DNA of 64,000 bases from a virus. The stretch lies in UHGV virus genome UHGV-0363627. One strand, given 5' to 3'. This document shows, piece after piece, positions 9,863-59,732 of the stretch; position 1 is the stretch's first letter, and every line of letters begins with the position of its first letter. The position numbers and the translations under genes were made by a program. The notes under the pieces are model-generated. The model did not search any database. It saw nothing but the letters and a program-made list of their open reading frames with translations, and was not told where the DNA came from.

Positions 9863-9885
9863 GAGAATGATTAATTTTTATAACA

Positions 9886-35140: not shown

Positions 35141-35168
35141 CCGCTACTACTTTCACAAGCAATAGCGG
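35141..35168 (-). terminator. hairpin with conserved 16-nt loop (family member 1); terminator-like on the minus strand
   Basis: Stem ccgcta/tagcgg with loop ctactttcacaagcaa. On the minus strand the hairpin is followed by ttttatttat. Confidence 0.4.
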
Positions 35169-35242
35169 CAACAAATTTAATACTTAAATCAACAACAGTA
35201 TCTTTAATATCTTTCATTTTTTCAATATCAATTAGATTATTT

Positions 35243-35309
35243 TAGCTCGCCCGTAGAGGAATGCTAGGCATGATAGCTAGCTTAATCATCACTTTCCTAC
35301 GGGCAAGCT
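35243..35309. repeat. inverted pair of the 21-bp repeat (copies 13/14) forming a ~17-bp-stem hairpin with 29-nt loop
   Basis: tAGCTCGCCCGTAGAGGAATG (35243-35263) ... tTTCCTACGGGCAAGCT (35293-35309). Confidence 0.7.
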
Positions 35310-35373
35310 GTAATATCAACAATAACTAAATCGTCAATATAAATAATAACTAAATTATAACATTTACTAGCAG

Positions 35374-35427
35374 TAGCTCCCCCGTAGGGAATGCTAGCAT
35401 TACATCATATCCTCTACGGGCAAGCTA
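35374..35427. repeat. inverted pair of the 21-bp repeat (copies 15/16) forming a second hairpin with 17-nt loop
   Basis: tAGCTCCCCCGTAGGGAATG (35374-35393) ... CCTCTACGGGCAAGCTa (35411-35427). Confidence 0.7.
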
Positions 35428-35464
35428 TATTATCTATTACATCTTTTTCATTTTTACCTCCTTT

Positions 35465-35656
35465 CTATGCTAATTGACCATCAAAATAACTTTCACATTC
35501 ATCGCAATAAATTTCAACTACTTCATTATCAGTAATCATATCTATTGTTTCATCATCAGCATAATCTTCTATATAAACAGTATTACCGCAATATGGACAT
35601 GAACAAATATAACCACGTCCATCTTCATCATAAATTCCAACAATTTCTTCTTCCAT
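35465..35656 (-). CDS. small zinc-ribbon protein (63 aa)
   Basis: Contains CSCPYC...CDEC (two CxxC pairs). Confidence 0.5.
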   Translation of the reverse strand: MEEEIVGIYDEDGRGYICSCPYCGNTVYIEDYADDETIDMITDNEVVEIYCDECESYFDGQLA

Positions 35657-35658
35657 AA

Positions 35659-35919
35659 TTACAACATTTCAAATTTATCAATAACACATTTATAAAAATC
35701 AGCAGGCATAGAGCCAAATATTCTTGCTATTTCTCTAATATTTTCTCTAAATATAACAGTAGGAAAAACATTAGTTTTATATTTATTATTTGCAATATCT
35801 CGATTACAAGTTACTATATTACATTTTATATCTTTATCTTTACATGTATCTTGTAATATACTACTAACAAATTCACAAGCAAGACAATCTTTAATTGTTA
35901 TAACTTCTATTATTTTCAT
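35659..35919 (-). CDS. glutaredoxin/thioredoxin-fold protein (NrdH-like)
   Basis: 86 aa with N-terminal CLAC dithiol motif and a later FPTVIF motif. It sits next to nucleotide-metabolism genes. Confidence 0.5.
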   Translation of the reverse strand: MKIIEVITIKDCLACEFVSSILQDTCKDKDIKCNIVTCNRDIANNKYKTNVFPTVIFRENIREIARIFGSMPADFYKCVIDKFEML

Positions 35920-36212
35920 ACTTGTACAACTTCTTCATCTGTAAAACCATGAGCAAGACTAAAATGATTACGAAAATCATCAAGAGTTCTAACATACATT
36001 TGACTTTCAATATCAGCTCTAGTATATATAACTCCAGGACTCCATTTACCATTTAATTTAATAAGATTATCTCTTGCTTCTATAACTTTATATAAATTCT
36101 CAGTTTTAATATGAATAAAATAATCTCCAGCATTTACTGGAGAATTATTATATAAAGGTTTTAATTTATTTGCCTGTGCTTCCATAACCACCTTGTCCTC
36201 TATCTGTTTCAC
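35916..36212 (-). CDS. hypothetical protein (98 aa)
   Basis: ORF, overlapping stop/start arrangement. Confidence 0.45.
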   Translation of the reverse strand: MKQIEDKVVMEAQANKLKPLYNNSPVNAGDYFIHIKTENLYKVIEARDNLIKLNGKWSPGVIYTRADIESQMYVRTLDDFRNHFSLAHGFTDEEVVQV

Positions 36213-36840
36213 CTAAATCTTCTAATTTATCAACTTCTTGCCATTCAATCTTAGTTCTTTTACGAACAAGAATTTGAGCAATTCTATCTCCTACTTTATA
36301 AGGGAATTTATTCATATCATTAAGTTCATATCTATCTCTATCTATAGCATTAAGAACATGAATATAAGAATCATTAGATTTATTATTATTAATTTTGTCT
36401 AAGTTAATTCTAATACTATCAATTATATTTAAAAAATTAATATTATCTCTACATTTAAATACCACCGTTATTTCTCCTCTATAAGGTTCATCTATACAAC
36501 CAGGCATATTAGCTATATAATATTCAGTTTTAGTAAGAGAACTTCTAGGTTTTACTTCGCATTCATAATCTTTATCTAAAGCCATATGTAATCCTGTATG
36601 AACAATATATCTATCTTTTTTAGCATCATATTCAATAGATTGAGCATATAAGTCACAACAAGCATCGCCATCGTGAGCATAAGTAGGAAGAGGTATATCT
36701 TTATTTTCTCTCCAACATTTAACAGGTATTATTTTATTAAGTTCATCTTGTTTAATTAAATAATTAAGCACATCTCCATTTTTACTACCAGAAAGTAACA
36801 TTTTAAGTGCATGTTCTACATAATTTTCATTTCTTTTCAT
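36166..36840 (-). CDS. dut: dUTP diphosphatase (dUTPase)
   Basis: GCIDEPYRGEI matches dUTPase motif 3 (G-x-ID-x-x-YRGE), and KPRSSLTK matches the motif 2 RSS region. Confidence 0.65.
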   Translation of the reverse strand: MKRNENYVEHALKMLLSGSKNGDVLNYLIKQDELNKIIPVKCWRENKDIPLPTYAHDGDACCDLYAQSIEYDAKKDRYIVHTGLHMALDKDYECEVKPRSSLTKTEYYIANMPGCIDEPYRGEITVVFKCRDNINFLNIIDSIRINLDKINNNKSNDSYIHVLNAIDRDRYELNDMNKFPYKVGDRIAQILVRKRTKIEWQEVDKLEDLGETDRGQGGYGSTGK

Positions 36841-36857
36841 AATCTTTATTTATTTAA

Positions 36858-37364
36858 TTACCAATCAGTACATAAAGAAAGTTTAATAGTTTCTTCTCCT
36901 AAAATATCAATAGCTTGTTGAGCAAGTTCTTTAGATTTAAAATATATACCATCAGAACAACAACTTGCTACATATGCTATTTCTATTTTATTACCAGGAT
37001 AATCTATATAAAGATAATATTTATATTCAATTTTATTCTTATTATCCCAATCAGGTTGCCAACCACCATTAAGATATTTAGCAACATTCATTAGTTGATT
37101 AATGGCAAGAAGCTTTTTGGCTTGCTTTTCAGAAGTACAATTATTTGTATCATTATAATCATTATTTAGAGCTTTTATAAATTTTATATTACAAAAAGCA
37201 TCAGTATAATAAGTTTTTTTATCTTTAAATAATTCTTTAGCTATATCATCATAAGTAAGTTCTTTTTTAATAGGTCTAAATTTAATAATATTATTTTCTA
37301 AATATGCTTCTGTTCCTTCAGGAATATCAATTTTAATTTCATTAATTGTCTTTTCCATAATCAC
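36858..37364 (-). CDS. hypothetical protein (168 aa)
   Basis: ORF. Confidence 0.5.
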   Translation of the reverse strand: MIMEKTINEIKIDIPEGTEAYLENNIIKFRPIKKELTYDDIAKELFKDKKTYYTDAFCNIKFIKALNNDYNDTNNCTSEKQAKKLLAINQLMNVAKYLNGGWQPDWDNKNKIEYKYYLYIDYPGNKIEIAYVASCCSDGIYFKSKELAQQAIDILGEETIKLSLCTDW

Positions 37365-37370
37365 ATAATT

Positions 37371-38438
37371 TTAAATAACAAATTCATATTCTAATGCTTC
37401 TTTTAATTTTCTACTTTTATCTCCAAACATTATACTATCCATTCGTTTCGCACCTGTAGCTGTATCAACATTACTATAATAGCCAGTAATAGAATTATAA
37501 GCACCCCATGCAGTACCAACTATTTCTTTTTGTCCGATACCAACATTATAATAGTCCCAAGTATCACTAATAATATTCAACTTACGTGTACTAATATCTG
37601 CATCATTACAAGCCTGACCATTTCTATATATAACTTGTTTATAACTATGACCTGTATTAAGAAGTTTCGCTTTTTCTTCATCTGTCAAATAAAATTCACA
37701 GATATATTTCATAACTTGTTCATCAGTCATTTTTATACTTTCTAATAAATTATATGCATCATTTGTAGCTTGTATAATTTGTTTTGTAATTCCTAATACA
37801 CGATGGGCTTCTTCTATATTTTTATGAACAGAACTAGTATGTTTATATGATAAAGCATTTCCACTCTTCAAAGCAGCAGCTAATGTATTTTGACAAATAA
37901 CCCTAATAGGAGTAAATAATATTTTAACTCCACCATTACCATCATGATTATTAACAAATAAAAGATAATTTTCTACAATATCACCTTTTACTCTAATATT
38001 ATCAGGTAATTTAGCAGAAACAAATATTCTTTCTCCATTACCAAAGAAACCAGCAGTTTGCCATTTAGCTTCATTTGTTCCTATTGCATCATCAAAGAAT
38101 TTAAAAGCTTCTTTATTTTGAACAATAGTATATTGTTTCTTAACAGTACCTAGAGGAATTTTATAATCATCACGATAAGTACAATAAGCATTAGGACAAG
38201 TAGTATATAAATTACTACCTAAAATATGTGCATCAGAATCTTTCTTTTTAAGATTATTAAAATCATCTAATGCTTTATCCATATTTATTACATCAATAGG
38301 CATTTTAGCAACAAGTTCATGTTTCTTAACTTCATAGTCAAGACCAGCTTTAATCATTACTTCTTCTGTAGTTTTACAATCTTCTACATTGACAACCCCA
38401 GCATATCGCCAGGGTTGTCCAATAACTCTATAACTCAT
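37371..38438 (-). CDS. hypothetical protein (355 aa)
   Basis: ORF with relatively conserved-looking (less AT-biased) composition. Confidence 0.55.
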   Translation of the reverse strand: MSYRVIGQPWRYAGVVNVEDCKTTEEVMIKAGLDYEVKKHELVAKMPIDVINMDKALDDFNNLKKKDSDAHILGSNLYTTCPNAYCTYRDDYKIPLGTVKKQYTIVQNKEAFKFFDDAIGTNEAKWQTAGFFGNGERIFVSAKLPDNIRVKGDIVENYLLFVNNHDGNGGVKILFTPIRVICQNTLAAALKSGNALSYKHTSSVHKNIEEAHRVLGITKQIIQATNDAYNLLESIKMTDEQVMKYICEFYLTDEEKAKLLNTGHSYKQVIYRNGQACNDADISTRKLNIISDTWDYYNVGIGQKEIVGTAWGAYNSITGYYSNVDTATGAKRMDSIMFGDKSRKLKEALEYEFVI

Positions 38439-38722
38439 AATTTTATATCTTTAAGTTTAACAACAGCGGTAACTCTAGTAAAAATAACTCCTTCTTCACA
38501 ATCATCAAGTCCTTTCTTATTTCTATATTCACCAAGACAATATCCAAGACTATCAATATTTGCTAATTCTCCAGACATACATCCTCCATGTTTTCCATAC
38601 ATACAGCATTGTGAACAAGAAAATATATTAGATTTTATATTAGATTTAATACATCTAACAATACCAAAACCTTCAATTAATGCTTCTTCTCCAATATTTA
38701 AAGCAAGAGTATTCTTTTTCAT
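38435..38722 (-). CDS. small Cys-rich protein (95 aa)
   Basis: Contains CSQCCMYGKHGGC cluster. Confidence 0.45.
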   Translation of the reverse strand: MKKNTLALNIGEEALIEGFGIVRCIKSNIKSNIFSCSQCCMYGKHGGCMSGELANIDSLGYCLGEYRNKKGLDDCEEGVIFTRVTAVVKLKDIKL

Positions 38723-38723
38723 A

Positions 38724-39509
38724 TCATTTAATAGTTAAAGTTTGATTTTCACAAAGTCGAGCAACATTTAATTTAGCTTCTCTAGTAAGAATATAATTTT
38801 TATATCTTGTTTTATCTATATCGACAGACAAACTTCCATCAGTATCTTCATGATTAAAATAAGTATTAACAATATCATAATTTAATTTATCAAGAAGTTT
38901 AATCAAAGGTATGTTAAATTTAATTTCAACACTAGTAGATTCTAAATCATCTTTAGTAAAATTAATTTGATTTTCTTCAGAACATTCAGCATTAAAATTA
39001 GCATTTAATGTACTAAGAAAACTATCAACATCAATGCTTTGTAATTCATTAGAATCTAATAGCATATCATTATTCCATAATTCTCTTAATCTATCAAAAG
39101 CAGCATCTTTTAATTCTAAAACAAGATTAGTATCAACTTCACAAACTTTACTTGCTCTAGTCATTAATTTACTATCATCTAATTCTATTACTTTATTGCC
39201 AGACTTATTAGTATCACCATATTTAAGAACTGCATCTAGCATACTGGCTTTTAATCTATCAACAATTCTTTGTCTTGATTTAGATAAAGCATCTATTCTA
39301 GTTTTTTCATTTTTACAATAATCAATACGAGAAGAAATTTCTGCAATAACTTTTCTATAATTATCAAGTTTTTCTTTAAGATTATCTTGAGTAATTTCAA
39401 GTTCTTTTGCTAATTCTTCTGTTATTTCTCCACCATTTTCAATTATTTCATCTATAATAGATGATAATCTCATATCAATACTATATAAACTTTGATTAAT
39501 TGTTCCCAT
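38724..39509 (-). CDS. hypothetical coiled-coil protein (261 aa)
   Basis: ORF. Confidence 0.5.
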   Translation of the reverse strand: MGTINQSLYSIDMRLSSIIDEIIENGGEITEELAKELEITQDNLKEKLDNYRKVIAEISSRIDYCKNEKTRIDALSKSRQRIVDRLKASMLDAVLKYGDTNKSGNKVIELDDSKLMTRASKVCEVDTNLVLELKDAAFDRLRELWNNDMLLDSNELQSIDVDSFLSTLNANFNAECSEENQINFTKDDLESTSVEIKFNIPLIKLLDKLNYDIVNTYFNHEDTDGSLSVDIDKTRYKNYILTREAKLNVARLCENQTLTIK

Positions 39510-39510
39510 A

Positions 39511-39684
39511 TCAATAATTCTTTACTGTTTCAATAATAGTTGATTTAATTTTACCGCAATTAGAACAACGATTGATAATAATTTTACCAATCACATTTCC
39601 TCGAACATCTTTGCATTCTTCTTCTTTATAAATTTCATATTTATGTAAATGAAGAAAACATTTTAAATCTTGCAACTTATTCAT
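39511..39684 (-). CDS. small zinc-ribbon-like protein (~57 aa, MNKLQDLKCFLHLHKYE...NRCSNCGK...); not in the supplied ORF track
   Basis: My manual translation of the 175-bp gap between annotated ORFs gives a C/H-x-x-C pattern. The frame and ends are approximate. Confidence 0.3.
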   Translation of the reverse strand: MNKLQDLKCFLHLHKYEIYKEEECKDVRGNVIGKIIINRCSNCGKIKSTIIETVKNY

Positions 39685-39686
39685 AT

Positions 39687-40559
39687 TTATCCTTCTCTAA
39701 ATTCATAACCTAAATCCATTAATTTATTTCTAATCATACCAGCAATTATACGGGCGTTTTCATGTGGTCGTCCAGTAGTTCCATAATATCTTAAATCTAA
39801 TATATGACACCATTCTTTATAAGAGTAAGTATATGCACAAATAGTTGCAGTATCAAGAGGAAGAACACCGCGAGCATCTTGTCTATTCATTTTATATATA
39901 TCTATAAGACGTTTATATGAACTAAAACTTAAATCACAAGAATCAAAATATTCATTAAGTTTTTTACTACCTACAGAAAATACTTTATGCTCATCATTAT
40001 TTATCATTTCTGCTTCTTCATTCGTCATCCAATGAGGTCTACAAAGAGTTCCATCTTCATATACATATCTAGTACTTCTTTCAGCAATACTATTAGGAGA
40101 AACTCTATTAAGTTCTCTACTAGTACTAATTTGAGTAGTAACTTTAAATGTATATCTTAACATAGGCATAGTTATTTGTCTATGTTCTTCAATACTAATA
40201 AATTTATGTCTATCTACTTGATATTGTTTAATTAATTTAATAAAAGGATAATCTTCATTATCCATTATAAAATTTCTATTTGTAGAAACATAAGTATAGC
40301 CATCAAACACATGAATATTAATATAAGGACAATTAGCATAATAAGCAGCTAAATCTCCTAAATTTCTATCATGATTAGGTATCATTGCATAAACACTTTC
40401 ATGACGAAACATACTCCAATGTTTATCATTAATCAATCTTCTTATAGTAGCTTCATCATTACCTGTTTCTCTACCATAACAAACTCTTGCACATCTTGCA
40501 ACATGAGCTTTAGCATCTTCTTGTAACCAAAGTTCAACTGAAGGTTCAATAATTTTCAT
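39687..40559 (-). CDS. thyX: flavin-dependent thymidylate synthase ThyX
   Basis: N-terminal AHVARCARVCYG and ERSTRYV (S-x-RY) match ThyX signature elements. Length is 290 aa. Nucleotide-metabolism genes cluster here. Confidence 0.6.
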   Translation of the reverse strand: MKIIEPSVELWLQEDAKAHVARCARVCYGRETGNDEATIRRLINDKHWSMFRHESVYAMIPNHDRNLGDLAAYYANCPYINIHVFDGYTYVSTNRNFIMDNEDYPFIKLIKQYQVDRHKFISIEEHRQITMPMLRYTFKVTTQISTSRELNRVSPNSIAERSTRYVYEDGTLCRPHWMTNEEAEMINNDEHKVFSVGSKKLNEYFDSCDLSFSSYKRLIDIYKMNRQDARGVLPLDTATICAYTYSYKEWCHILDLRYYGTTGRPHENARIIAGMIRNKLMDLGYEFREG

Positions 40560-40570
40560 ATCAATTATAA

Positions 40571-40984
40571 TTAAAAATTCGACAAATCTAAATTAATATC
40601 ATTACGAAGAAAATCAAAATCTTTTGGATGCATATAATTAATTTTATCCAATGCTTCAACATTATCAAAATAATTTTCAAGAGCATTATCATTTATAAAT
40701 ATATAACTACCAAATCTAATTGTATCTTCTTCTTCAAATGTTTTAATAAACAACGTAGCTATTTCTAGCTTTGCTTTACATTCTGGACAAACTACACCAT
40801 TAATAGTATTAATTTCTTTTGAGCAATCTCTGTTCATTGTATTAAAGAAAGGTGTATAAAACATCGGTTTCTTACATATATAACAAACAGTAGGTGCAGC
40901 ATTAACACCATAATCAGGATGATTTTTAAGTACATTGTAGCTTGCCCGTAGGGAATGCCTACCATTATAACTACAATACTTCAT
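40571..40984 (-). CDS. hypothetical protein (137 aa); N-terminus contains a repeat copy in frame (SLRAS)
   Basis: ORF. Confidence 0.45.
   Translation of the reverse strand: MKYCSYNGRHSLRASYNVLKNHPDYGVNAAPTVCYICKKPMFYTPFFNTMNRDCSKEINTINGVVCPECKAKLEIATLFIKTFEEEDTIRFGSYIFINDNALENYFDNVEALDKINYMHPKDFDFLRNDINLDLSNF
40938..40957 (-). repeat. 21-bp repeat copy 17, in CDS 40571..40984 (HSLRAS)
   Basis: tAGCTTGCCCGTAGGGAATG. Confidence 0.7.
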
Positions 40985-41873
40985 CTTTTATAACTTTAGC
41001 TATTTCATTATATAAATCTTGTAAACTACCATTATTATAAATAGTTTTATCAGCATTAATATTTATCTCTTCGCTAACATGATTACTATTATAATATTCT
41101 ATATGAGCATCATCTCGCCAAATACGAATAACTTTACCGCCTGCTTTATGAATAGCTTCTTCTTCATCTTTAAATCTAACATCTGGTATAATACATAAAG
41201 AATATCTATTAGCTATTTCATGAGCATTATTAATAGTAGGTCTAATCCAAACATTATTATCAAATCTTTTCTTCATTAATTCTGTTCCAATAAATTGAAG
41301 AAGAGTTCTAATAGTAATAGCAATTTTACCGTCAAATTGTTTTATATAATTAATTAATCCTGTAACTTCTAAACTTTTAATATCAATTAATTTATAATCA
41401 TTAGGATAATTATCTCCAACCAACTTTTGTTTATCCCAAAGATAATAACCTTTATCTTTATTTTCATTAATTTGTTTTATACTAAGTCCTGTTATAATAG
41501 AAAGAACTTGTTTTAATGGGTCGGCAAAATGAATAATTAAATCTTCTCTTAATAAAGCATTTGTAACATAATATCTTTTATTCCATTTATCATAAGTTGG
41601 ATTATTAACTAATAATTGATACGTAATAATACTGGCAACAACATCTTTACCACTATGTGCTTTGCCAGCAATTCCAATAATTTTAGCTTGTTTCATATCT
41701 TTAAATTTATAAGTTATCGTAACAAATATAATATTATTATCAATATCATCAAAACAAACAATCAAGAAATATTTGGCAGAAATAAATTTTCTATTTCGCA
41801 TTTCTAGCCATTCTGACATACTTTTGTCAAAATCCTTACAATGTATCACGACAATATAGAAAATCAAATACAT
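40971..41873 (-). CDS. deoxynucleoside monophosphate kinase-like P-loop protein; real start probably the internal ATG near 41699 (MKQAKIIGIAGKAHSGKD)
   Basis: Walker A IGIAGKAHSGKD resembles T4 gp1 dNMP kinase G-x-x-G-x-GKD. The first ~58 codons are AT-rich leader-like. Confidence 0.45.
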   Translation of the reverse strand: MYLIFYIVVIHCKDFDKSMSEWLEMRNRKFISAKYFLIVCFDDIDNNIIFVTITYKFKDMKQAKIIGIAGKAHSGKDVVASIITYQLLVNNPTYDKWNKRYYVTNALLREDLIIHFADPLKQVLSIITGLSIKQINENKDKGYYLWDKQKLVGDNYPNDYKLIDIKSLEVTGLINYIKQFDGKIAITIRTLLQFIGTELMKKRFDNNVWIRPTINNAHEIANRYSLCIIPDVRFKDEEEAIHKAGGKVIRIWRDDAHIEYYNSNHVSEEININADKTIYNNGSLQDLYNEIAKVIKDEVL

Positions 41874-41975
41874 GCAAAATCTGACCTATTCTGAGCCATG
41901 TTTTGATATGTTTTGGATATAAACAAAAAATGCTGCCGACAATGACTTATCATCATTATCAGCAGCAATAACTTC

Positions 41976-42407: not shown

Positions 42408-42408
42408 T

Positions 42409-43599: not shown

Positions 43600-43600
43600 A

Positions 43601-45646: not shown

Positions 45647-45647
45647 A

Positions 45648-46289: not shown

Positions 46290-46307
46290 TCTACTAACAA
46301 TTAAATA

Positions 46308-48242: not shown

Positions 48243-48332
48243 AATTGTAAAATTTTAAATGTGAATAAATAAATTAATTATATTAATACAAATAGCATTA
48301 ATCAAAGTTTTAAGAGTTTGACTAATTCAACT

Positions 48333-49259: not shown

Positions 49260-49307
49260 AATGTCAAAGAGCTTTATTGTTTTTGATTACATGACAAATA
49301 TAAGCAA

Positions 49308-52032: not shown

Positions 52033-53301
52033 ACTTATGTCAAAATGATAAATTGTAAAAGCATTATCTCTTTGTAGCTTGCCCGTAGAGGAATTGCTAG
52101 ATATATCCCATTCAGTAGTACTCCATATTTCCATTGGTCTATCTTTACTATGAAGTCCACCTGTAGCTAGAGTATAATTAACATCACCAATAATAACTTC
52201 TTTCTCAAAAGCATCTTTGCTAACTCTATATAATGTAGTCTTTTTTATTTCTTTAAGTAGTTCTTGTAACTGTGGAGTTTTAAATTCAACACAATCAAAT
52301 ATAATCTTACCTAAATTCATAGCAGTTCTTTTAGTTCTTCCATCTTTCCATTTCTCATATGGAATACCACTATATTTAGTATAAAACTTTTGAAATAAAA
52401 CATTAGCCATATTACTACGACTACTATTAAGAACATCTACTTTATAAGAAGCAGAAACAGCATATCGAGATTTAATTTCATTAGGATTAAGACGAACAAT
52501 TTCACAAACAATAAATACATCATTTTTATTATAATGCATCATATCTGGAATATATTCATCTATTATATATCTATCCCATTTATCAATTACATTGGTGAGC
52601 TTTTTATAATCATAACCTTTATATCTTGTATCTTTTGCATAATAGTGATAATCTTTATCACATATATCAGGTAATTCGTATTCAAGAAGTTCATACCATT
52701 GTAGATTTATACTAGTTTGTTTTAAGCCTTTTGGAATATATTTCTTTTCTCCAGTTTTACTATCAACAATAGTTCCAGCTTTATTCAAAGCAAACACTTT
52801 CATTACATCTACACCTTTAAACGGCAATGGATATTTTCTTAAACTTCTTAATAGAAAATCATTTTTAGCACCATCTTTATTATCTTGTAATTCAATTATC
52901 TTTTTTGATGTTTCATAAAGCCTTGTAATAAGTTCTTTTGTAGTATCTGTTTGACCAAAATACATTAATAAAGCAGCAATCATAAGATTATCATAGCTTT
53001 GACTATTATAACCATATAAATCACTACGAGGATAAAGTTCATTAGCTTTAAATCCATTAATATATTCAACCATTGAGAATAATTGACTATCATCTGTATC
53101 TGTAATATAAAATTGTTTACATTTTACAACATCAAGTCTTTGTAATAATTCTTTAACAGATATTTTTTGAACAATAGGAATTGCTTTTCCTTTACTATCT
53201 ACAACATCTTTAAAAGTATCAAGATAACTAGCTAAATCAATAAATGTTATCGAAAAAAAGTTAGGAAGTACTTCCACATCATAACATTCTATTCTTATCA
53301 T
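52033..53301 (-). CDS. family B DNA polymerase, exon 1 (exonuclease domain to start of motif A)
   Basis: YDVEV matches Exo I, YNSQSYDNLMI Exo II and YNKNDVF Exo III. It ends ..YHFDIS at motif A (D-x-x-S-x-Y..), completed by exon 2. Confidence 0.6.
52075..52095 (-). repeat. 21-bp repeat copy 21, in polB exon 1 (SSTGKL), 43 nt from the intron junction
   Basis: TAGCTTGCCCGTAGAGGAATtg. Confidence 0.7.
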
Positions 53302-53828
53302 ACATATCTTCTCATATTATAATATTTTATAGCATTAACAAAATCTGTTTTTATAGCTTTCTTTACCTCAGCTTCATTATATTTATCAAATGAAAACTTT
53401 ATATTGTAAAAACAATATTTTCCATAATTGATAATCTTATTAGAACAACCATTAGGAAAAATAGTACGAGTACTATTAATCACAATCATATATCTATAAG
53501 GAACTCTCATAAGTTCTTCATTCAATATATTGCGACAATTACTCATACTATTCTCATAAAGTTTGTATGAACAATTATAAGTAGAACATTTAATATTATA
53601 CGTAATGTAACATTGTTCAAGCATATTTCGTCCTGTATATTCAAGCCAAATAGCTTTTAAATCTTCTAATAATTTATTACGAAAATTCTTATTACCATAC
53701 ATAGGTAAAAGAATAACAATATCAGAAGTTATACATCCTATGCCAATATCAATAGTACGACCAATATTAAACATTCTATTTATACAATACTGACAATGAA
53801 TACAAGTATCAACAGTCATATAAAACAT
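53298..53828 (-). CDS. Cys-rich protein (176 aa) upstream of the polymerase, possibly UDG-family-4-like
   Basis: CIHCQYC cysteine cluster. Its position, fused or adjacent to polB, is common in crAss-like phages. This call is weak. Confidence 0.25.
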   Translation of the reverse strand: MFYMTVDTCIHCQYCINRMFNIGRTIDIGIGCITSDIVILLPMYGNKNFRNKLLEDLKAIWLEYTGRNMLEQCYITYNIKCSTYNCSYKLYENSMSNCRNILNEELMRVPYRYMIVINSTRTIFPNGCSNKIINYGKYCFYNIKFSFDKYNEAEVKKAIKTDFVNAIKYYNMRRYV

Positions 53829-54067
53829 TATAATGATAATAATTTATCTACAATATAAAGTTCACCGCACCATAAATAATTATAACTTTCAATCATAGGA
53901 GAATTAATTCTAATATCATCATAACTATTAACAATATCCCAACCTGTATTGTTATATCTGCCTATTATTATATCATTTTCTGATATACCAACAATCATAA
54001 CTTCTTCATCCGATTCATTTTTATAAGTTTTACCGAGATGTTTCTTTATAAATTCTTCAGCCGTCAT
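53828..54067 (-). CDS. small protein, tandem paralogue A (79 aa)
   Basis: EEFIKKHLGKTY..MIVGIS..IIIGRYN aligns with the neighbour's IEFVKNNLGKECH..MIVGYRN..VIIGFYN. Confidence 0.45.
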   Translation of the reverse strand: MTAEEFIKKHLGKTYKNESDEEVMIVGISENDIIIGRYNNTGWDIVNSYDDIRINSPMIESYNYLWCGELYIVDKLLSL

Positions 54068-54312
54068 AATATTTTAATATTTGATGGTCTCACATAATAA
54101 TAAGTTTTAAACATAGCAGATTGAATAATAAATTTATCACCTTCATAATTATCATTATAAGGGTCAGTCATCCATCTGTCTGTGACATAATTATAAAATC
54201 CTATAATAACATATTCAGTATTGCGATAACCAACAATCATTCCTTTATCTGCAAATTCATTTATATGACATTCTTTACCAAGATTATTTTTTACAAATTC
54301 TATATTATCCAT
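54064..54312 (-). CDS. small protein, tandem paralogue B (82 aa)
   Basis: See paralogue A. Confidence 0.45.
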   Translation of the reverse strand: MDNIEFVKNNLGKECHINEFADKGMIVGYRNTEYVIIGFYNYVTDRWMTDPYNDNYEGDKFIIQSAMFKTYYYVRPSNIKIL

Positions 54313-55261
54313 AACATATATACAATTTATTCTTACATCTACTACAAGCTACATACAATCGTCTTAACAAATCATCTACATTACTATAAGCATTACCATT
54401 TTTATCATAACACATATCATTTATATCAACAAATACATTATCATAAGTACTACCTTGGCTTCGATGACTTGTTAAAGCAAATCCATAATCTATATCTCTT
54501 GAAATAATAATCTTACCTGTATAATCAACTACATTTTCAAGCAAAAGATACTTTCTCTTAAACTCATAATATTTCTTCCAACAACTAGAACGAGTTTTAA
54601 TATCAGCATTTTTTGCTTTATTAATAAGATAATTTACCTCATCACAATATGTTTTCAATGTATAAGCATCAAAATGATTTATAACAAATAAAGGCTTAGT
54701 AACAGCTCCACCATGTATAGCTTGAAACCTTATCATAAAACCTTTAAAATTATAAGTTTCATCTTCATAATTAACTATGTCTTTAATAATATATTCTTCA
54801 CTATTATTAATAATAATATCATTAAAATCATCAACAATAGTTGTATAAGACATTATCAAATCATTTCTATTAATTATAGTCTTATCAGCATTTCGAACAA
54901 TAGTTTGACGAATAACTTTATTCCAATAAGATACAGCATTATTAGTATATGCTACCATACGATACAAATCAACATTTGTTGCAAAATTTTCATCAGAAAA
55001 TCTATTCATAACAACATTTGTAAATTCTTGTCGATTATATACTTTATATCCAACATCACCATTTATATTTTCTCTGTTTTTATAAATATAACTAAGAAAA
55101 TTAAATGTTCTATGTTTTATATCATCACGTAGCATTGCCAACAATTCAGTAACAGGATTATCTTTTTCTTGTCGTACAATTTCTTTAAGTTCGCTAGTCT
55201 TATAAGCATTTTTAAAAGCAGTACTAACTTTCTCATTTACAGGACTAAGCTGATTTGCATC
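54305..55261 (-). CDS. Dda/RecD-like SF1 helicase, exon 2 (begins DANQLSPV, motif III)
   Basis: Exon 1 ..KVLYIG joins exon 2 DANQLSPV to make LYIGDANQLSPV (motif III GD-x-x-QL-x-PV). Downstream, YGFALTSHRSQGSTYDNVFV and LYVACSR match motifs V/VI. Confidence 0.6.
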   Translation of the reverse strand, partial: DANQLSPVNEKVSTAFKNAYKTSELKEIVRQEKDNPVTELLAMLRDDIKHRTFNFLSYIYKNRENINGDVGYKVYNRQEFTNVVMNRFSDENFATNVDLYRMVAYTNNAVSYWNKVIRQTIVRNADKTIINRNDLIMSYTTIVDDFNDIIINNSEEYIIKDIVNYEDETYNFKGFMIRFQAIHGGAVTKPLFVINHFDAYTLKTYCDEVNYLINKAKNADIKTRSSCWKKYYEFKRKYLLLENVVDYTGKIIISRDIDYGFALTSHRSQGSTYDNVFVDINDMCYDKNGNAYSNVDDLLRRLYVACSRCKNKLYICYG

Positions 55262-56485
55262 CAATAATCTTATAACTTTCATTATAAGCCTGACTATATC
55301 TTAGTTGCATTATCAATATCTATATAAGGTAAAAATTGTTCTTTATATTTTTTATCAAGTTTAAAAAAATCAACAAAAACATATCCTTTATGACTCTTTT
55401 TTGTACCGTTTATAACTTGACTGACATTTTTAGGTGTAAAGCCATTATCTCTAAGGTCTTGTGAACCATAAAATATTCTAAATTCATGTTCATCATTATT
55501 TGTTATAGCTAAAGAAATACCAATATAAATTCTATTATTAGTTTTACCTGGCATATATTCATAATTTTTATCAGTATCATAATTATTTTTATAAATCCAT
55601 TGATAGCCTTTATGAATATTTCTTTTTCCTGAACAACAATCAGCTATACATCCAGCGTAAAAATGCCCAATTTCTTCCGCTTCTGTAGCTGATGCCCATT
55701 CTTTAACAATATTACCTAAAATATCTATTTGTAAAACAGGTTTTGAATTAGGATTAAGTTCATATTTATTTCCATAATTACCATTTTCTTTACCAATAAA
55801 ATGTTTGTTATAAAAATAATTTTCATTTCCTTTTTTCCCAATACAAGTATCACCTTCATTTCCATTAACTAAACAACCACCATTTTCAATACATTTGTAT
55901 TTAGCTATTAATTCTTTTTCTATAGTTATACTATCTTCAATAGATATATCTATTTTATTTATAACTACTTTAACTTTAGAAACATCTTTAACTTTATTTT
56001 TCCAAAGATTATTTCTATTATTAAAATTAAATGCTCTACTAATAGTACCTTGACCTACATAAAATGGTAGTTCTTCATCATTATAATAATGAAGATAAAC
56101 ACAAATTCTTTCTAAATCTTTAAAAGAATAATCATACTTACTAGGAATATCTTTAACGCTATTAATATTCCTTTTCTTTTTGTTAATTGTAAAATTAAAT
56201 GTAACCATATATTTATAATTTAAAAGTTCATTACAAATATATGGCGAAAATTGATAATTTGCAACTTTCTCCGTTTCGATTTTTAAAAAATCTACTCCCT
56301 TTCGGGATAGTCGATGAACTTTGTTCATTTCATAATTCACATTATTACTTAGAACCTTAGCTGCTGATTGTCATATATTATTAGTTTTTCAAGCATTCAC
56401 ACTTAGATTTTCATCTTATGTTGTAGCACTAATAACTTCACGAGTTTCCAGCAATTAGAAGAATTTTATATCGGCAATGCTATTC
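55262..56485 (-). mobile_element. group I self-splicing intron (~1.2 kb) with embedded GIY-YIG homing endonuclease, interrupting helicase motif III
   Basis: Minus-strand P AATTGCTGGAAAC (top 56444-56456), Q AATCAGCAGC (56360-56370), R GTTCATCGACTATCC (56304-56319), S AAGATATAGTC (55292-55302). The 5' splice site follows U (..atcggt) and the intron ends ..attattG. Its blocks are near-identical to the polB intron. Confidence 0.65.
55294..56340 (-). CDS. GIY-YIG homing endonuclease (I-TevI-like) with two NUMOD/IENR-type DNA-binding repeats
   Basis: ICVYLHYYNDEELPFYVGQG is a GIY...YIG motif. SKPVLQIDILGNIVKEWASATEAEEIG...GKRNIHKGYQWIYKN is one NUMOD-like module and PKNVSQVINGTKKSHKGYVFVDF a second. 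The ORF fills the intron between R and S (P8 loop). Confidence 0.65.
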   Translation of the reverse strand: MNYEMNKVHRLSRKGVDFLKIETEKVANYQFSPYICNELLNYKYMVTFNFTINKKKRNINSVKDIPSKYDYSFKDLERICVYLHYYNDEELPFYVGQGTISRAFNFNNRNNLWKNKVKDVSKVKVVINKIDISIEDSITIEKELIAKYKCIENGGCLVNGNEGDTCIGKKGNENYFYNKHFIGKENGNYGNKYELNPNSKPVLQIDILGNIVKEWASATEAEEIGHFYAGCIADCCSGKRNIHKGYQWIYKNNYDTDKNYEYMPGKTNNRIYIGISLAITNNDEHEFRIFYGSQDLRDNGFTPKNVSQVINGTKKSHKGYVFVDFFKLDKKYKEQFLPYIDIDNATKI

Positions 56486-56968
56486 ACCGATGTAAAGAAC
56501 TTTAATTTTTCTATCAGCGCAATATTTATTAATATAAGTAACTAATGCTTTATTAAGCATACTAGCTTCATCAACAATAAGAACTTTTACATTAGCAACT
56601 TTAGGCGGACCAATAGGTTTAAAAGCAGGCAAATTAGGGTCAAAATCTTCAATATTAGTATCAATTCTAAACCCAAAAGCAGCTTGTATAGTAGTTACTT
56701 TTCTACCTCCTGTAGCATTAGACAATATACGACAAGCTTTATGTGTTGGAGCAGCAAGATAAAACATACTTGAACCATATTTACTATGCTCAATTATATA
56801 ATTTGTAACAAAAGTTTTACCACACCCTGCTGCGCCAGATAATGCTTGAACATTTTTAAGTTTATTAAAATCTTCAGCTATAAAACTTATTATATTATCG
56901 ACAGCTTTTTCTTGACTAGGAGTAAAATTAGGTTTAATAGCTTTTTGGTCTAAACTAATCATATTCAA
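56486..56968 (-). CDS. Dda/RecD-like SF1 helicase, exon 1 (Walker A to motif II)
   Basis: GAAGCGKTF matches Walker A and LIVDEASML matches motif II. The ORF ends at a stop 2 codons into the intron. Confidence 0.6.
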
Positions 56969-57377
56969 AAAATACTTCTTTTATTGTATCTATATCTATA
57001 TCATTTAATAATGTATCATGATAAACTTTAGTTATAGCACATATTCTTTTATTATTAATAAAACAAATATTAGCTTTAACTTTTAACCCAATAGCAATAC
57101 TAGTATAATGTTTTGTTCCAACATCAACCGTATCTTCACCATTACGAATTATCTTTATTCTATGACCATTTTCATCTAATCTTCGAGTATAAATAATTCG
57201 TTTTCCTTTAGTAGAAATACTATTTTCATCAATATCATATAAAACATCATTTGCTTTTAACTTATATTCGTTATTAACAATAGCGATGACACCTTCAATA
57301 GTTTCTACTACATTTGTCTTAGGTTTACTTTTCTCTTTTTTCTTAATAGCAGATAAAGAGAAATTAAAAGTTACCAT
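56955..57377 (-). CDS. hypothetical protein (140 aa)
   Basis: ORF. Confidence 0.45.
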   Translation of the reverse strand: MVTFNFSLSAIKKKEKSKPKTNVVETIEGVIAIVNNEYKLKANDVLYDIDENSISTKGKRIIYTRRLDENGHRIKIIRNGEDTVDVGTKHYTSIAIGLKVKANICFINNKRICAITKVYHDTLLNDIDIDTIKEVFFEYD

Positions 57378-57381
57378 AACA

Positions 57382-57672
57382 TTATCTCTTATATTGTTTC
57401 TTACTATTAGTCATTATAGCTTGTTTCATAGTACGTTTGTTTTCCGTTCTATCCTCTACGGGCAAGCTATCCTGAACTTCAACCACTTCATCATTTGTCA
57501 TAATTCTTGTATATCCTTTATAATTACATAAGTAATCAATTTTTCCAGATATAGAATTACTCATTCTCACACCTTTACTAATTCTAACAGTTTTGTCATT
57601 AGTTACAATTTTAATTCCATTAATTGCTTTCAGTGCTTTGATAACACTTACTTCATCATAATTTTTTGCCAT
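57382..57672 (-). CDS. hypothetical protein (96 aa); contains a repeat copy in frame (SLPVED)
   Basis: ORF. Confidence 0.45.
   Translation of the reverse strand: MAKNYDEVSVIKALKAINGIKIVTNDKTVRISKGVRMSNSISGKIDYLCNYKGYTRIMTNDEVVEVQDSLPVEDRTENKRTMKQAIMTNSKKQYKR
57453..57468 (+). repeat. 21-bp repeat copy 22, in CDS 57382..57672 (SLPVED)
   Basis: Direct read. Confidence 0.7.
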
Positions 57673-57746
57673 ACTTTACATAAGTTTTAAATTAAACAAT
57701 AATATTAATAAAAGCAGAAGCAACACTAGTTACTTCTGCTACAAAA

Positions 57747-57765
57747 TCTCCCCCGTAGAGGAATG
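57747..57765 (-). repeat. 21-bp repeat copy 23, variant (TCTCCCCCGTAGAGGAATG), intergenic
   Basis: Direct read. Confidence 0.55.
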
Positions 57766-57770
57766 TTAGA

Positions 57771-58067
57771 CTAATCAACCAACTCTAGTCCTAACATCTC
57801 TGCAACAACATTATACTGTTCTTTTTCAAAATCTTCATCTTCTTCATAATGTTCAGCATCTTTAATAAATTCTTCATAACATTCTTTACAAAATGCCATA
57901 TTAAGAACAGCTATAAAATATATAATCTCATTATCATCTTCAATAAGTTTATTACATTGGTCACAAATAAGTTTATTACCATAACCAAACTTACATTTAT
58001 TTCTTGCTTCATCTAAAGTCAATTCTATAATAAGAAATCCTTTTTCATTTTCTATCTTTTTTACCAT
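57771..58067 (-). CDS. small Cys-containing protein (98 aa; CDQC...CKEC zinc-binding-like)
   Basis: ORF. Confidence 0.45.
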   Translation of the reverse strand: MVKKIENEKGFLIIELTLDEARNKCKFGYGNKLICDQCNKLIEDDNEIIYFIAVLNMAFCKECYEEFIKDAEHYEEDEDFEKEQYNVVAEMLGLELVD

Positions 58068-58584
58068 AAACTAAATTATTAAATTCTTCAACACTAACAG
58101 TTTTATCCCAATCAATTCCACCATGCTTATCAATTATTTGTTGAGCAACATCAATAGGTAATAAACCAACAGTAGTAGTAACATCTTCAGGACATTCTGC
58201 ATATACTTTAAGAAGTTCTTCATCTTGATTAGGAAAACCAAATTCAACAGTTTCCATAGTATGACCTAAAGTTCTATAACCATTTTCAGAAGAACAATAA
58301 TTACCATTATGTATTTGTAGACTTATACTAAACCCATCATTGCAAACAACACGAGGACAAAAGAACCAAGTATTATTATAAGTCATATTATCACCATAAT
58401 ACTTATTATACATCATAATAGTAACACCTTTTTGAAATATAGACATTTGTATTAGTCTAAAGAAATGTATTAATTTCATATTATTTATCTTTAAATTGTT
58501 CACCAAACATTTGTTCAAAATCTTCTTTAGGACAAAGCATGATTCCGTTATTAGGAATAGCAACAGCTTCTTTTTTAATAGCAA
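58045..58584 (-). CDS. hypothetical protein; true start probably internal (MMYNKYYG.. near 58416)
   Basis: The N-terminal 55 codons overlap 58481..58828 in another frame and look non-protein-like. Confidence 0.4.
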   Translation of the reverse strand: MLLKKKLLLFLITESCFVLKKILNKCLVNNLKINNMKLIHFFRLIQMSIFQKGVTIMMYNKYYGDNMTYNNTWFFCPRVVCNDGFSISLQIHNGNYCSSENGYRTLGHTMETVEFGFPNQDEELLKVYAECPEDVTTTVGLLPIDVAQQIIDKHGGIDWDKTVSVEEFNNLVYGKKDRK

Positions 58585-58828
58585 CTAATCTTCCTGTTCT
58601 ATATGGATTTGCTTCTTGTTTTTCAACTTCAATGATAAATACGCCACCATCATCAATAACTTTTTGACAATCAGGACATATACTACCATCTACTATTTCT
58701 CTAGGTGCTTGAGTATCTCCTTTAAGTCTACCAAACAAAGCAATACTATGATGTTTACCACAAATAAAACATTTAATCATACTTGGATTAAGACCATGAT
58801 TTTTACTAAGTGTTATATTTTTACTCAT
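58481..58828 (-). CDS. zinc-finger protein (115 aa; CFICGKHH...CPDC)
   Basis: ORF with 2 CxxC pairs. Confidence 0.45.
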   Translation of the reverse strand: MSKNITLSKNHGLNPSMIKCFICGKHHSIALFGRLKGDTQAPREIVDGSICPDCQKVIDDGGVFIIEVEKQEANPYRTGRLVAIKKEAVAIPNNGIMLCPKEDFEQMFGEQFKDK

Positions 58829-59022
58829 ACTTCAAATATTATAGTAGCTCTATCAGCATTATAATTCAACTCTTTTATTCTCTCAATAATCATATCGCGA
58901 TAATCATTTTTCAAAACATGACAATCATCAGCAAGTTCTATCACACGTTCTAATTCTTCTATATCATTAGCTGCAACAAGAAGAACATTATTAGATTTAT
59001 TAGTACATTTAAAACATTTCAT
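58825..59022 (-). CDS. small protein (65 aa)
   Basis: ORF preceded by the conserved AAAGTCCGTCAGA motif about 60 nt upstream. Confidence 0.4.
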   Translation of the reverse strand: MKCFKCTNKSNNVLLVAANDIEELERVIELADDCHVLKNDYRDMIIERIKELNYNADRATIIFEV

Positions 59023-59078
59023 ATCAATTATTTATTTCTATATTATATAAAAATTCAGAATGAGCCATTTATTTGACA

Positions 59079-59091
59079 TCTGACGGACTTT
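59079..59091 (-). promoter_or_regulatory. conserved motif AAAGTCCGTCAGA (copy C, minus orientation) upstream of 58825..59022
   Basis: Top strand tctgacggacttt. Confidence 0.4.
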
Positions 59092-59160
59092 CTCACAAAA
59101 GTAATACAAATTATCACGATTGATATAAAAGTCTATCAGAAGTCAAAAGAAGTGGCAAAT

Positions 59161-59388
59161 TTAGGCTGTAGCGGTCAATAAGTATTCAGGAATCGCATGA
59201 TACTGGGAATGACCACATCGAATATCATAGTATATTGCATCAGTGTTATTATCATAAATAACATTAGCAATAACAACTTCACGTTGATTAGCCTTACAAT
59301 GAACAGTTTCTCCTTTATGAAATTTAGCATATTTGCTAATAAGACTATCAACCATAACATCAGTTAAAAGGCTTGCAATAGTATCCAT
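59161..59388 (-). CDS. small protein (75 aa)
   Basis: ORF. Confidence 0.4.
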   Translation of the reverse strand: MDTIASLLTDVMVDSLISKYAKFHKGETVHCKANQREVVIANVIYDNNTDAIYYDIRCGHSQYHAIPEYLLTATA

Positions 59389-59565
59389 AGTTATTTCTTT
59401 TTTACTAAATAATCATTATCTTTTTTATTTTTAGAATGAATACAACGAATCTTACAATATTCACAAGGTAAAATTTTTCCATTATGTTCTTCTAATATAA
59501 CAAAATTATATTTACAGTAATCTCCTTCTTTTACCATAATCAATATATTTAAATTAAACAATAAT

Positions 59566-59597
59566 CAAATAAAAAACCAGTACTATCTTCACAGACA
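59566..59597 (-). terminator. hairpin with conserved loop (family member 2) + T-run: rho-independent terminator for minus-strand transcription
   Basis: Stem aaccagta/tactggtt with loop ctatcttcacagacaa. On the minus strand it is followed by ttttttat. Confidence 0.45.
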
Positions 59598-59702
59598 ATA
59601 CTGGTTACTAAAATAATTAACACAATGTATTTATGCAGTTGTAATAACTCCAAGACTATTATAAATAGTTTAGACTTCATTTATCTCATCAGTTGGAGTG
59701 CA

Positions 59703-59732
59703 ACTACTCCTACTTTCACAAGCAAGAGTAGT
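59703..59732 (-). ncRNA. hairpin with conserved 16-nt loop (family member 3)
   Basis: Stem actactc/gagtagt with loop ctactttcacaagcaa, identical to the loop at 35147-35162. No in-frame ATG covers it. Confidence 0.35.

Follow-up and report, generated by a model that had tools for sequence, protein, structure and literature searches.

The analyzed window is a 64,000-nt stretch of the virus genome UHGV-0363627, a crAss-like phage, and carries three hairpins that share a 16-nt motif. All three are intergenic and co-oriented, lying on the minus strand, the sense strand of the leftward genes. The site 1 hairpin (minus strand, 35140..35169; GCCGCUA-UUGCUU-GUGA-AAGUAG-UAGCGGU) comprises 13 bp and a GUGA tetraloop (-19.4 kcal/mol, z = -6.7), is located in the 527-nt gap from ORF 35465-35656 to ORF 34221-34937, and is followed directly 3′ by a U-rich tract (UUUAUUUAUG; minus strand, 35130..35139). 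The site 2 hairpin (minus strand, 59575..59606; AACCAGUA-UUGUCU-GUGA-AGAUAG-UACUGGUU), of 14 bp and GUGA (-18.9 kcal/mol, z = -6.4), also has a U-tract directly 3′ (UUUUAUUUGA; minus strand, 59565..59574), both tracts being taken from a terminator scan and the sequence. The site 3 hairpin (minus strand, 59702..59733; GACUACUC-UUGCUU-GUGA-AAGUAG-GAGUAGUU) has 14 bp and GUGA (-18.7 kcal/mol) and begins 33 nt past the stop of ORF 59766-60215. A previous sequence-only reading of this DNA had reported all three sequences and placed sites 1 and 3 correctly, whereas site 2 had been positioned about 9 nt away, at 59566-59597. Sites 1, 2, and 3 scored 47.3, 47.4, and 39.0 bits with model R1, respectively. 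Site 1 has a counterpart by position in cr110_1 (61278-61247), site 2 has orthologues in L040 and L106, and site 3 differs from its L106 orthologue by a compensatory C-G to U-A change. The degenerate 16-mer CTAYYTTCACARRCAA matched exactly three times in the window; with up to two mismatches there were five matches against 0.98 expected, a count reached in 0 of 100 shuffles.

The conserved 16 nt had been interpreted as a loop. On the minus strand, they instead form a 6-bp upper stem (U.G, U-A, G.U, C-G, U-A, U-A) capped by the GUGA tetraloop, with the upper stem running unbroken into the variable lower stem to give helices of 13 to 14 bp in all cases. Predicted folding energies of the three sites were -18.7 to -19.4 kcal/mol (z = -4.0 to -6.7) on this strand, and weaker on the antisense plus strand (-8.4 to -10.2 kcal/mol), where the 16 nt are largely unpaired and the G.U pairs become A.C mismatches. 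In these fold predictions there is no 16-nt loop on the functional strand, and the description as a stem with a 16-nt loop is valid for the plus strand only. The neighboring genes are coded on this minus strand as well, and the earlier assignment of the hairpins to leftward transcripts is supported. Sites 1 and 3 (CTT/AAG) and site 2 (TCT/AGA) differ by a compensatory swap in the upper stem. All three share with intrinsic terminators a stable sense-strand hairpin downstream of a co-oriented gene. The 8 nt that follow contain six to seven T at sites 1 and 2 and one T at site 3, and a terminator scan of the window selected sites 1 and 2, in agreement with the earlier view that two of the three are terminator-like.

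We scrutinized IMG/VR for exact copies of the 16-mer, 110 of 128 being found within hairpins, defined by at least four further complementary flanking pairs (about 3% by chance), on 62 different lower stems. Counting viral, window, and bacterial-genome copies jointly, there were 89 distinct lower stems. The apical module has the consensus Y-U-G-N-N-Y / GUGA / R-N'-N'-U-R-G, most commonly UUGCUU-GUGA-AAGUAG, while the lower stem spans 4 to 11 bp and varies freely. Compensatory changes occurred in both the upper and lower stem. The sequence-only reading had proposed, as a check, to look in relatives for further copies whose stems compensate, and the outcome was strongly positive; its view that the element is truly structured, with stems that covary beneath a conserved apex, is supported. 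Of 108 hairpin copies, 105 were intergenic and pointed the same way as the local coding strand, at a median of 47 nt past the co-oriented stop, compared with an orientation of 10:8 for 16-mer copies outside hairpins. U-tails, defined as at least five T in the next 8 nt, followed 70 of the 110 hairpin copies (64%), and a further class of 15 of 110, without U-tails, was located 4 to 5 nt upstream of co-oriented tRNA genes. Tandem arrays of two to four copies per intergenic region were also found. The same hairpins occupy syntenic positions in cr110_1 and p-crAssphage, phages with an identical apex span 24% to 47% GC, and host copies lie downstream of ordinary Bacteroidota genes encoding an ABC ATPase, a SusD-like protein, and a BspA-type LRR protein. 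The hairpins of the window are real members of a widespread RNA stem-loop family whose copies follow genes both in crAss-like phages of the gut and in the Bacteroidota that these phages infect; structure, strand, covariation, genomic placement, and family-wide conservation of the apex are all shown by the sequence analysis.

This family is apparently undescribed. CrAss-like phages are the most abundant human gut viruses, and to our knowledge almost nothing is known of how their transcripts start, end, or are processed. A 2023 review of Crassvirales makes no mention of terminators, promoters, hairpins, or non-coding RNA, and our literature search found no paper describing a GUGA hairpin element, nor transcriptome data on it. 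Rfam 15 gave no match at the gathering threshold anywhere in the window, and permissive scans of both loci gave weak matches only. BTnc201 was the only Rfam model touching a site (22.3 bits, E = 0.057, gathering threshold 105). This validated Bacteroides thetaiotaomicron sRNA has an intrinsic terminator (PMC7366714) whose upper stem, UUGUC...GAUAG, is common with site 2; however, its loop is UGGUGU rather than GUGA and similarity does not extend beyond the terminator. The match hints that host terminators may use similar stems and is no evidence of membership.

Sites 1 and 2 lie in ATG-initiated ORFs of approximately 46 and 43 aa (AIACESSSGFIYD and SIVCEDSTGFLFD), the former starting near 35216 and the latter being ORF 59549-59680, and the two local peptides are alike, which would suit a repeat that encodes part of small peptides. 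We find this hardly credible, as no start codon is in frame at site 3, the peptide likeness past the hairpin derives from the U-rich tails and aligns only with indels, and the substitutions keep base pairing intact rather than the encoded residues. Across the family, an ATG ORF reaches 30 aa or more in that frame in just 6 of 70 distinct members, and the median stop-to-stop length is 25 codons. A coding origin is thus effectively refuted, and a real ORF, the outcome that the sequence-only reading had set against a structured element, does not explain the repeat.

The orientation data also bear on a DNA-level element, be it an N4-type hairpin promoter, a primase or single-stranded DNA origin signal, or a nick site in the plus-strand 16-nt loop. 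In its favor, the 16 nt stay mostly unpaired on the plus strand, rolling-circle origins typically combine a conserved loop with a variable stem, and tRNA genes 4 to 5 nt after some copies would suit a hairpin promoter. However, orientation tracks transcription in both gene blocks (105:3), sense-strand U-tracts follow 64% of copies, and pairing, including the wobbles, is always kept on the sense strand only. Copies after ordinary chromosomal Bacteroidota genes, and one capping a hammerhead stem in p-crAssphage, an RNA context, further contradict the primase and origin functions suggested earlier. We therefore reject this very improbable reading.

Between sites 3 and 2, beginning 3 nt downstream of the site 3 hairpin, is a type I hammerhead-like element (minus strand, 59648..59698; CUCCAA-CUGAUGA-stem II-UAAAC-stem III-GUC-UUGGAG) with a predicted cut after GUC, between 59654 and 59653. 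Its three-way junction is formed by stems I (CUCCAA/UUGGAG, open), II (GAU/GUC), and III (ACUAU/AUAGU), with GUC as the triplet. The catalytic core retains its CUGAUGA box, whereas UAAA stands in place of GAAA (G12 to U, window position 59672), and because of this replacement the window copy is probably inactive. It scored 24.6 bits with Rfam Hammerhead_1 (E = 4.6e-4 over 211 nt), short of the 34 bits set as gathering score, and intact relatives were likewise missed at the gathering threshold. Orthologues with an intact core are found in L106, cr110_1, and p-crAssphage, while the CUGAUGA box is mutated in L040. In a pattern scan, a complete hammerhead with covarying stems followed 26 of 28 GUGA hairpins, and the order of hairpin then type I hammerhead is kept in at least five lineages. 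In p-crAssphage, one GUGA copy caps hammerhead stem III.

From placement and sequence, we infer that these sense-strand stem-loops probably mark transcript 3′ ends, acting as terminators where a U-tract follows and protecting upstream RNA where it does not. Sites 1 and 2 would most likely direct intrinsic, Rho-independent termination of the leftward genes. Copies without a U-tract instead stand just upstream of an RNA-cutting site, the hammerhead at site 3 and tRNA genes in relatives; after cutting, the upstream RNA would carry the hairpin close to its 3′ end, where it most likely shields that RNA from 3′-to-5′ decay. Several findings count against this explanation: the hammerhead cut falls about 50 nt beyond hairpin 3, so that this hairpin would stop short of the exact 3′ terminus; approximately one third of the family, including site 3, lacks a U-tract, so "terminator" cannot fit all members; the hammerhead adjoining site 3 looks inactive; and the module is optional among the terminator-like hairpins of the window.

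Predicted stability leaves conservation of GUGA, the U-A closing pair, and the G.U wobble unexplained. In a set of 18 GUGA hairpins that differ from one another, 15 retained G(-4) and none lacked U(+8), and divergent copies retained the G.U, A(+9), and G(+10) even with a -5/+9 mismatch. An A-U pair at -4 has a predicted energy equal to that of G.U, yet the complete IMG/VR scan recovered 16 hairpins of the A-U form against at least 110 of the G.U form. Variants with C-G at -6, or with a C-G closing pair, would be 2.3 kcal/mol more stable by prediction, yet are rare. GUGA was also the top 4-nt loop in the sampled loci (66 distinct hairpins against 13 for the runner-up), although these loci were chosen by exact motif, which inflates the apparent conservation. 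As the apex is conserved beyond predicted stability, something beyond plain termination constrains it. This suggests recognition by some putative factor, and the earlier proposal that the loop is recognized by something is plausible on these sequence patterns. Our best guess is that an RNA-binding factor of the host or the phage docks at the apex, or that the apex has some folding property missed by nearest-neighbor energies.

A more specific version, which we advance tentatively, is that the apical module is a site for a putative trans-acting factor governing read-through, processing, or decay, candidates being RNA-binding proteins of the host or phage, antiterminators, nucleases, or the exit channel of RNA polymerase/NusA. 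The hairpin would then be a regulated punctuation signal rather than a passive terminator, which can coexist with a role in marking 3′ ends. Besides the apex conservation, tandem arrays look like multi-site binding platforms. In contrast, upper-stem covariants and other GNRA loops (GCGA, GAGA, GUAA) occur, so the apex sequence is not strictly required, and copies downstream of unrelated host genes also speak against such a site. Furthermore, most terminators of the same genomes lack the module, and it is present in only two of the seven strongest terminator-like minus-strand hairpins of the window, and is hence optional. More speculative still is a GUGA/G.U "punctuation mark" common to crAss-like phages and Bacteroidota, read by a putative protein to control termination versus read-through, processing next to ribozymes and tRNAs, or transcript stability; the tandem arrays downstream of the conserved hammerhead would then yield a small RNA of the phage that serves to carry, or to titrate, this protein.

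The shared apex might alternatively reflect only copying and common descent, with terminator cassettes spread by recombination among phages, among hosts, and from one to the other, and no selection on the apex. Several copies per genome and tandem arrays are consistent with this, as is one Bacteroides MAG in which five contigs end about 75 nt from a copy, placing it at the edge of a repeated and possibly mobile element. Neutral divergence would strike apex and stem base alike, however, and an identical 16-nt apex on 62 lower-stem types, in phages of 24% to 47% GC, argues against copying only. Likewise, the G.U to A-U change at -4, costless in predicted energy, would be expected often, yet the A-U form is rarer by a factor of at least 7. 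We regard copying only as improbable.

The 3′-end hairpin is conserved and easily spotted, and so offers a practical way to annotate the transcription units of uncultured Crassvirales and of phages of Bacteroidota. That it occurs beside hammerheads and tRNA genes points to an RNA-processing layer in crAss-like phages. Should a protein read the apex, the two would constitute a new pair of RNA and cognate protein in the Bacteroidota, whose RNA biology is poorly charted, and the hairpin would also be a compact terminator part for Bacteroides engineering.

Sites 1 and 2, like 64% of all family members, resemble intrinsic terminators in having a stable sense-strand hairpin with an immediate U-tract, tens of nucleotides past a co-oriented stop. 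Ordinary intrinsic terminators conserve neither loop nor stem sequence, whereas the GUGA family keeps its 16-nt apex (GUGA, U-A closing pair, and positioned G.U wobbles) across phages and hosts, and one third of it lacks the U-tract. The lambdoid boxB/nut element is likewise a short hairpin whose GNRA-type loop is conserved in sequence, there because the N antiterminator reads it, a parallel that underlies the antiterminator suggested in the sequence-only reading. Unlike the GUGA hairpins, which are found at gene 3′ ends with U-tracts, boxB has a 5-bp stem and no U-tract and lies near promoters, at the 5′ operon end beside boxA; we know of no N-like partner in crAss-like phages. REP/BIME elements of enterobacteria are extragenic palindromes at gene 3′ ends that stabilize upstream mRNA and can end transcripts, and, like the GUGA hairpins, are repeated and sometimes tandem. 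REP keeps the whole palindrome, whereas the GUGA family keeps the apex only and leaves the stem base free (89 lower stems). Intercistronic C(UUCG)G hairpins of phage T4, reportedly tied to termination and mRNA stability by Tuerk et al. in 1988, also reuse one tetraloop cap many times in phage intergenic regions. In contrast, the GUGA family has a GNRA loop on a weak U-A closing pair, and its conservation reaches 6 bp into the stem with fixed wobbles and is not the thermodynamic optimum. UUCG-capped terminators are also present in p-crAssphage.

The window (GC content, 26%) comprises a plus-strand gene block from 1 to 33.5 kb, with ORFs of 1975 and 4340 aa at its end, and a minus-strand replication gene block from 33.8 to 64 kb. 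Megablast returned partial matches to the crAss-like phages cr110_1 and Carjivirus communis, and gene order agreed with that of cr110_1 (Intestiviridae, Crudevirinae). All three hairpins of the sequence-only reading were present, each within an intergenic gap of the minus-strand block, at 35140..35169 (site 1), 59575..59606 (site 2), and 59702..59733 (site 3), site 2 lying about 9 nt from where that reading had placed it. The degenerate 16-mer common to them had 3 exact matches in the window; allowing up to two mismatches there were 5, against 0.98 expected, and no shuffle gave 5. The 16 nt had been described as a loop; however, on the minus (sense) strand they self-pair, UUGCUU with AAGUAG around a GUGA tetraloop. 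This upper stem (U.G, U-A, G.U, C-G, U-A, U-A) runs on into a variable lower stem, and we refer to the conserved apex as the module. Predicted sense-strand helices were 13 to 14 bp with energies of -18.7 to -19.4 kcal/mol, whereas plus-strand folds, in which G.U pairs become A.C mismatches, reached only -8.4 to -10.2 kcal/mol. Relative to sites 1 and 3, site 2 had two stacked pairs exchanged in a compensatory manner (CU/AG to UC/GA). The U-runs reported for two of the three hairpins were confirmed at sites 1 and 2, both of which were called by a consensus terminator scan; site 3 had none. In cr110_1, an exact-module hairpin near the end of the corresponding block (61278-61247) was the positional counterpart of site 1.

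Scanning IMG/VR with the exact 16-mer TTGCTTGTGAAAGTAG recovered at least 120 loci, and the counts are lower bounds. The idea of a recurring element with covarying stems held up in relatives: among the matches listed, 110 of 128 exact 16-mers had at least four further complementary flanking pairs, compared with about 3% of shuffled flanks, and these 110 hairpins carried 62 distinct lower stems. Five or more T residues occurred in the next 8 nt of 70 of the 110 listed hairpins. Viral contigs carrying the exact 16-mer ranged from 24% to 47% GC, many being about 90 kb. When one genome per bacterial species was searched, 34 of the 118 matches listed were in hairpins, with 30 distinct stems; most of those with an organism name were, going by record titles, from Bacteroidota (Bacteroides, Prevotella/Segatella, Parabacteroides, Dysgonomonas), and a few were on contigs binned into other phyla that were crAss-like in size and GC. 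Bacterial 16-mers outside hairpins behave like chance matches. A covariance model (R1) built from 92 distinct GUGA hairpins found exactly sites 1 to 3 in the window (47.3, 47.4, and 39.0 bits, respectively); in cr110_1 it detected five copies, and in p-crAssphage another five, tandem arrays included. Module density was about 5 copies per 90 to 97 kb phage genome, much denser than in bacterial chromosomes. Double-sided changes were abundant at every lower-stem pair of the R1 alignment; since its members were preselected as hairpins, independent evidence for the structure comes from the complementary flanks of the exact-motif matches. Loci sampled for the family analysis were likewise chosen by exact motif, and queries for related loci with the upstream 149-aa protein and a three-protein alignment recovered only a near-identical contig. 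Common descent alone does not fit the shared apex, as identical apices sit on unrelated lower stems.

Among the matches listed, 105 of 108 viral hairpins were intergenic and co-oriented with the local coding strand, at a median of 47 nt downstream of a co-oriented stop, while non-hairpin copies of the 16-mer were split 10:8 in orientation. Chromosomal copies in Bacteroidota followed ordinary genes, namely those for an ABC ATPase, SusD-like, BspA-type LRR, DUF4099, and DUF2141 proteins, so any machinery involved would not be phage-specific. Fifteen listed copies were exactly 4 to 5 nt upstream of co-oriented tRNA genes, typed by ARAGORN as Thr, Met, Ile, or undetermined; these had short lower stems of only 4 to 5 extra bp and no U-tail, with a cctc stem at 11 loci (L007, L036, L037, L049, L056, L059, L068, L069, L075, L080, and L100) and a gtgtg stem at four (L011, L035, L051, and L087). 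ARAGORN found no tRNA genes in the window itself. That the module might simply be a repeated coding fragment, part of the outcome the sequence-only reading had named as fatal to its proposal, was rejected: no conserved ORF spans it, and in the frame that covers sites 1 and 2 by chance, only 6 of 70 distinct members had an ATG-initiated ORF of at least 30 aa. Sites 1 and 2 are crossed by small ATG ORFs (about 46 and 43 aa, at 35075-35216 and 59549-59680, both minus strand) that encode similar local peptides; by the family-wide analysis they are coincidental.

A type I hammerhead-like fold began 3 nt after the site 3 hairpin, at 59698-59648 on the minus strand, and matched Rfam Hammerhead_1 at 24.6 bits (E = 4.6e-4, 211 nt searched). 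All features were present except that GAAA was UAAA. The orthologue at sampled locus L106 (~9834-9888) had a canonical core, the corresponding hairpin of cr110_1 was followed by a textbook hammerhead, and the near-identical phage L040 kept GAAA with a mutated CUGAUGA box. Judged by sequence, the ribozyme of the window appears to be decaying, and inactivation is predicted to have come about by separate mutations in the window (G12 to U) and L040 (CUGAUGA box). Besides L106, the coordinates for relatives were L240 (~34053-34111, minus strand) and L241 (~4322-4455, plus strand), and the p-crAssphage hammerhead had a stem III extended by some 95 nt, with another module-like hairpin as its cap. At the Rfam gathering score all of these hammerheads went undetected; the intact copies in cr110_1, p-crAssphage, and L106 were checked by hand and by covariation. 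In a pattern scan, a complete hammerhead followed 26 of 28 GUGA hairpins, and stems I, II, and III covaried across at least five lineages. The hammerhead directly after a module hairpin was thus kept in the early block of Crudevirinae crAss-like phages, in the order gene, module hairpin without U-tail, hammerhead, 80 to 150 nt that sometimes hold further module hairpins, and module hairpin with U-tail.

A U-tract, an RNase P site, and a ribozyme would all place the hairpin right at, or close to, the 3' terminus of the RNA upstream, which points to a 3'-end-forming and 3'-end-protecting stem-loop. Anatomy and placement suggest intrinsic terminators at sites 1 and 2 and a processing-boundary hairpin at site 3. 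A DNA-level element, such as an origin or promoter, was rejected, and with it the earlier suggestion of a single-stranded DNA origin: orientation was co-directional with transcription (105 of 108 among the matches listed), U-tails followed on the sense strand, pairing was maintained on that strand only, copies followed host genes, and one copy was inside a ribozyme stem.

The reading as a terminator or 3'-end element leaves apex conservation partly unexplained. Eighteen other distinct GUGA hairpins of the same genomes, exact-motif copies excluded, gave the consensus Y-U-G-N-N-Y GUGA R-N'-N'-U-R-G, in which 15 of the 18 retained G(-4) and all 18 retained U(+8), its pairing partner (numbering within the apex, around the GUGA loop). 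Divergent copies retained the G.U pair, A(+9), and G(+10) even where the -5/+9 pair was broken, and true compensatory variants of the upper stem existed too. A complete IMG/VR scan for the A-U variant at the -4 pair found 33 loci, 16 of them in hairpins, compared with at least 110 hairpins for the G.U form; the 17 non-hairpin loci look like chance matches and serve as a background estimate. Nearest-neighbor energies gave the two forms the same value (-18.9 kcal/mol), did not distinguish among GNRA loops, and predicted a gain of 2.3 kcal/mol from C-G at position -6 or as the closing pair. These energies do not explain the preferences at the apex, which argues for a sequence-specific constraint; the most economical addition would be recognition of GUGA and the G.U wobble, either by a factor or by the exit channel of the polymerase. 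Docking of GUGA into a receptor in its own CU:AG helix was dropped, as the NN pairs vary (UC:GA, UU:AA, AU:AU), as were in-frame UGA...UAG stops as a conserved feature, UGG variants being common and ORF stops lying a median of 47 nt upstream.

The module hairpin fits no Rfam family, and we found no published description. The window had no match at the Rfam gathering score, and permissive scans of both hairpin loci gave only weak hammerhead and BTnc201 matches. Searches of the literature on sequence strings and on crAss terminators, hairpins, tetraloops, and ribozymes found no paper describing the hairpin, and the Theta-Base and terminator papers held no relevant motif information. By anatomy and placement it would work like an intrinsic terminator; T4 CUUCGG hairpins likewise reuse one tetraloop cap, and REP elements resemble it loosely, but it is not a boxB/nut site. 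The weak BTnc201 match (59565-59636, minus strand; 22.3 bits vs. a gathering score of 105) was to the terminator of this Bacteroides thetaiotaomicron sRNA, which has the upper stem UUGUC...GAUAG in common with site 2 but a different loop.

Tandem arrays placed three to four module or module-like hairpins within 300 to 400 nt of a single intergenic region (L241, 4287-4604, plus strand; L240, 33944-34228, minus strand; L082, 3456-3830; L187), with a U-tail on the last hairpin only. Such an array may represent a small structured RNA of the phage, set free by the hammerhead. An unrelated 26%-GC viral contig carried a RAGATH-1-type hammerhead (L004, 2317-2372, plus strand; 52.4 bits vs. a gathering score of 56.3), with another exact-module hairpin about 50 nt downstream. 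p-crAssphage also has UUCG-capped terminator-like hairpins (L241, 1211-1240, plus strand; L242, ~14218-14249, p-crAssphage 64149-64118, minus strand), so at least two types of special tetraloop cap are in use in crAss-like phages. In Bacteroides sp. RGIG8771, five contig ends (L124, L142, L167, L182, and L190) lay about 75 nt from an exact-module hairpin flanked by two other hairpins, which places the module at the end of a repeated and possibly mobile element.

Other repeats were also present in the window. Short tandem repeats with periods of 12 and 15 nt were found in the 61.0 to 61.5 kb gap (61170-61270 and 61412-61448), and direct repeats of 86 to 92 nt, spaced ~870 to 880 nt (61736-61827/62603-62694 and 62326-62411/63206-63291), arise from three tandem paralogous genes (61533-62105, 62406-62996, and 63498-63986). 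About 24 copies of a GC-rich, roughly 20-nt motif, T(C/T)CCTCTACGGGCAAGCTAC, occurred in 64 kb, its 11-mer core being expected 0 times; the motif may be more unusual than the module hairpins, and we found no literature on it. Copies were in both orientations and mostly within ORFs, and convergent inverted pairs were frequent (5106+/5275-, 16966+/17102-, 22167+/25822-, 27258+/28543-, 35260-/35391-/35410+, 57452+/57762-, 60016-/60595+, and others). The core, TCCTCYACGGGG, also ranked first among repeated GC-rich words in both cr110_1 (28 copies) and p-crAssphage (34 copies), and the 3' half of the motif was lineage-specific. Motif pairs occupied equal positions in orthologous genes, namely the 1975-aa gene and the tail tubular gene; in the latter, the motif encodes SSTG in the window phage, cr110_1, and p-crAssphage. 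In the window and in cr110_1, a close motif pair formed a hairpin just upstream of a module terminator.
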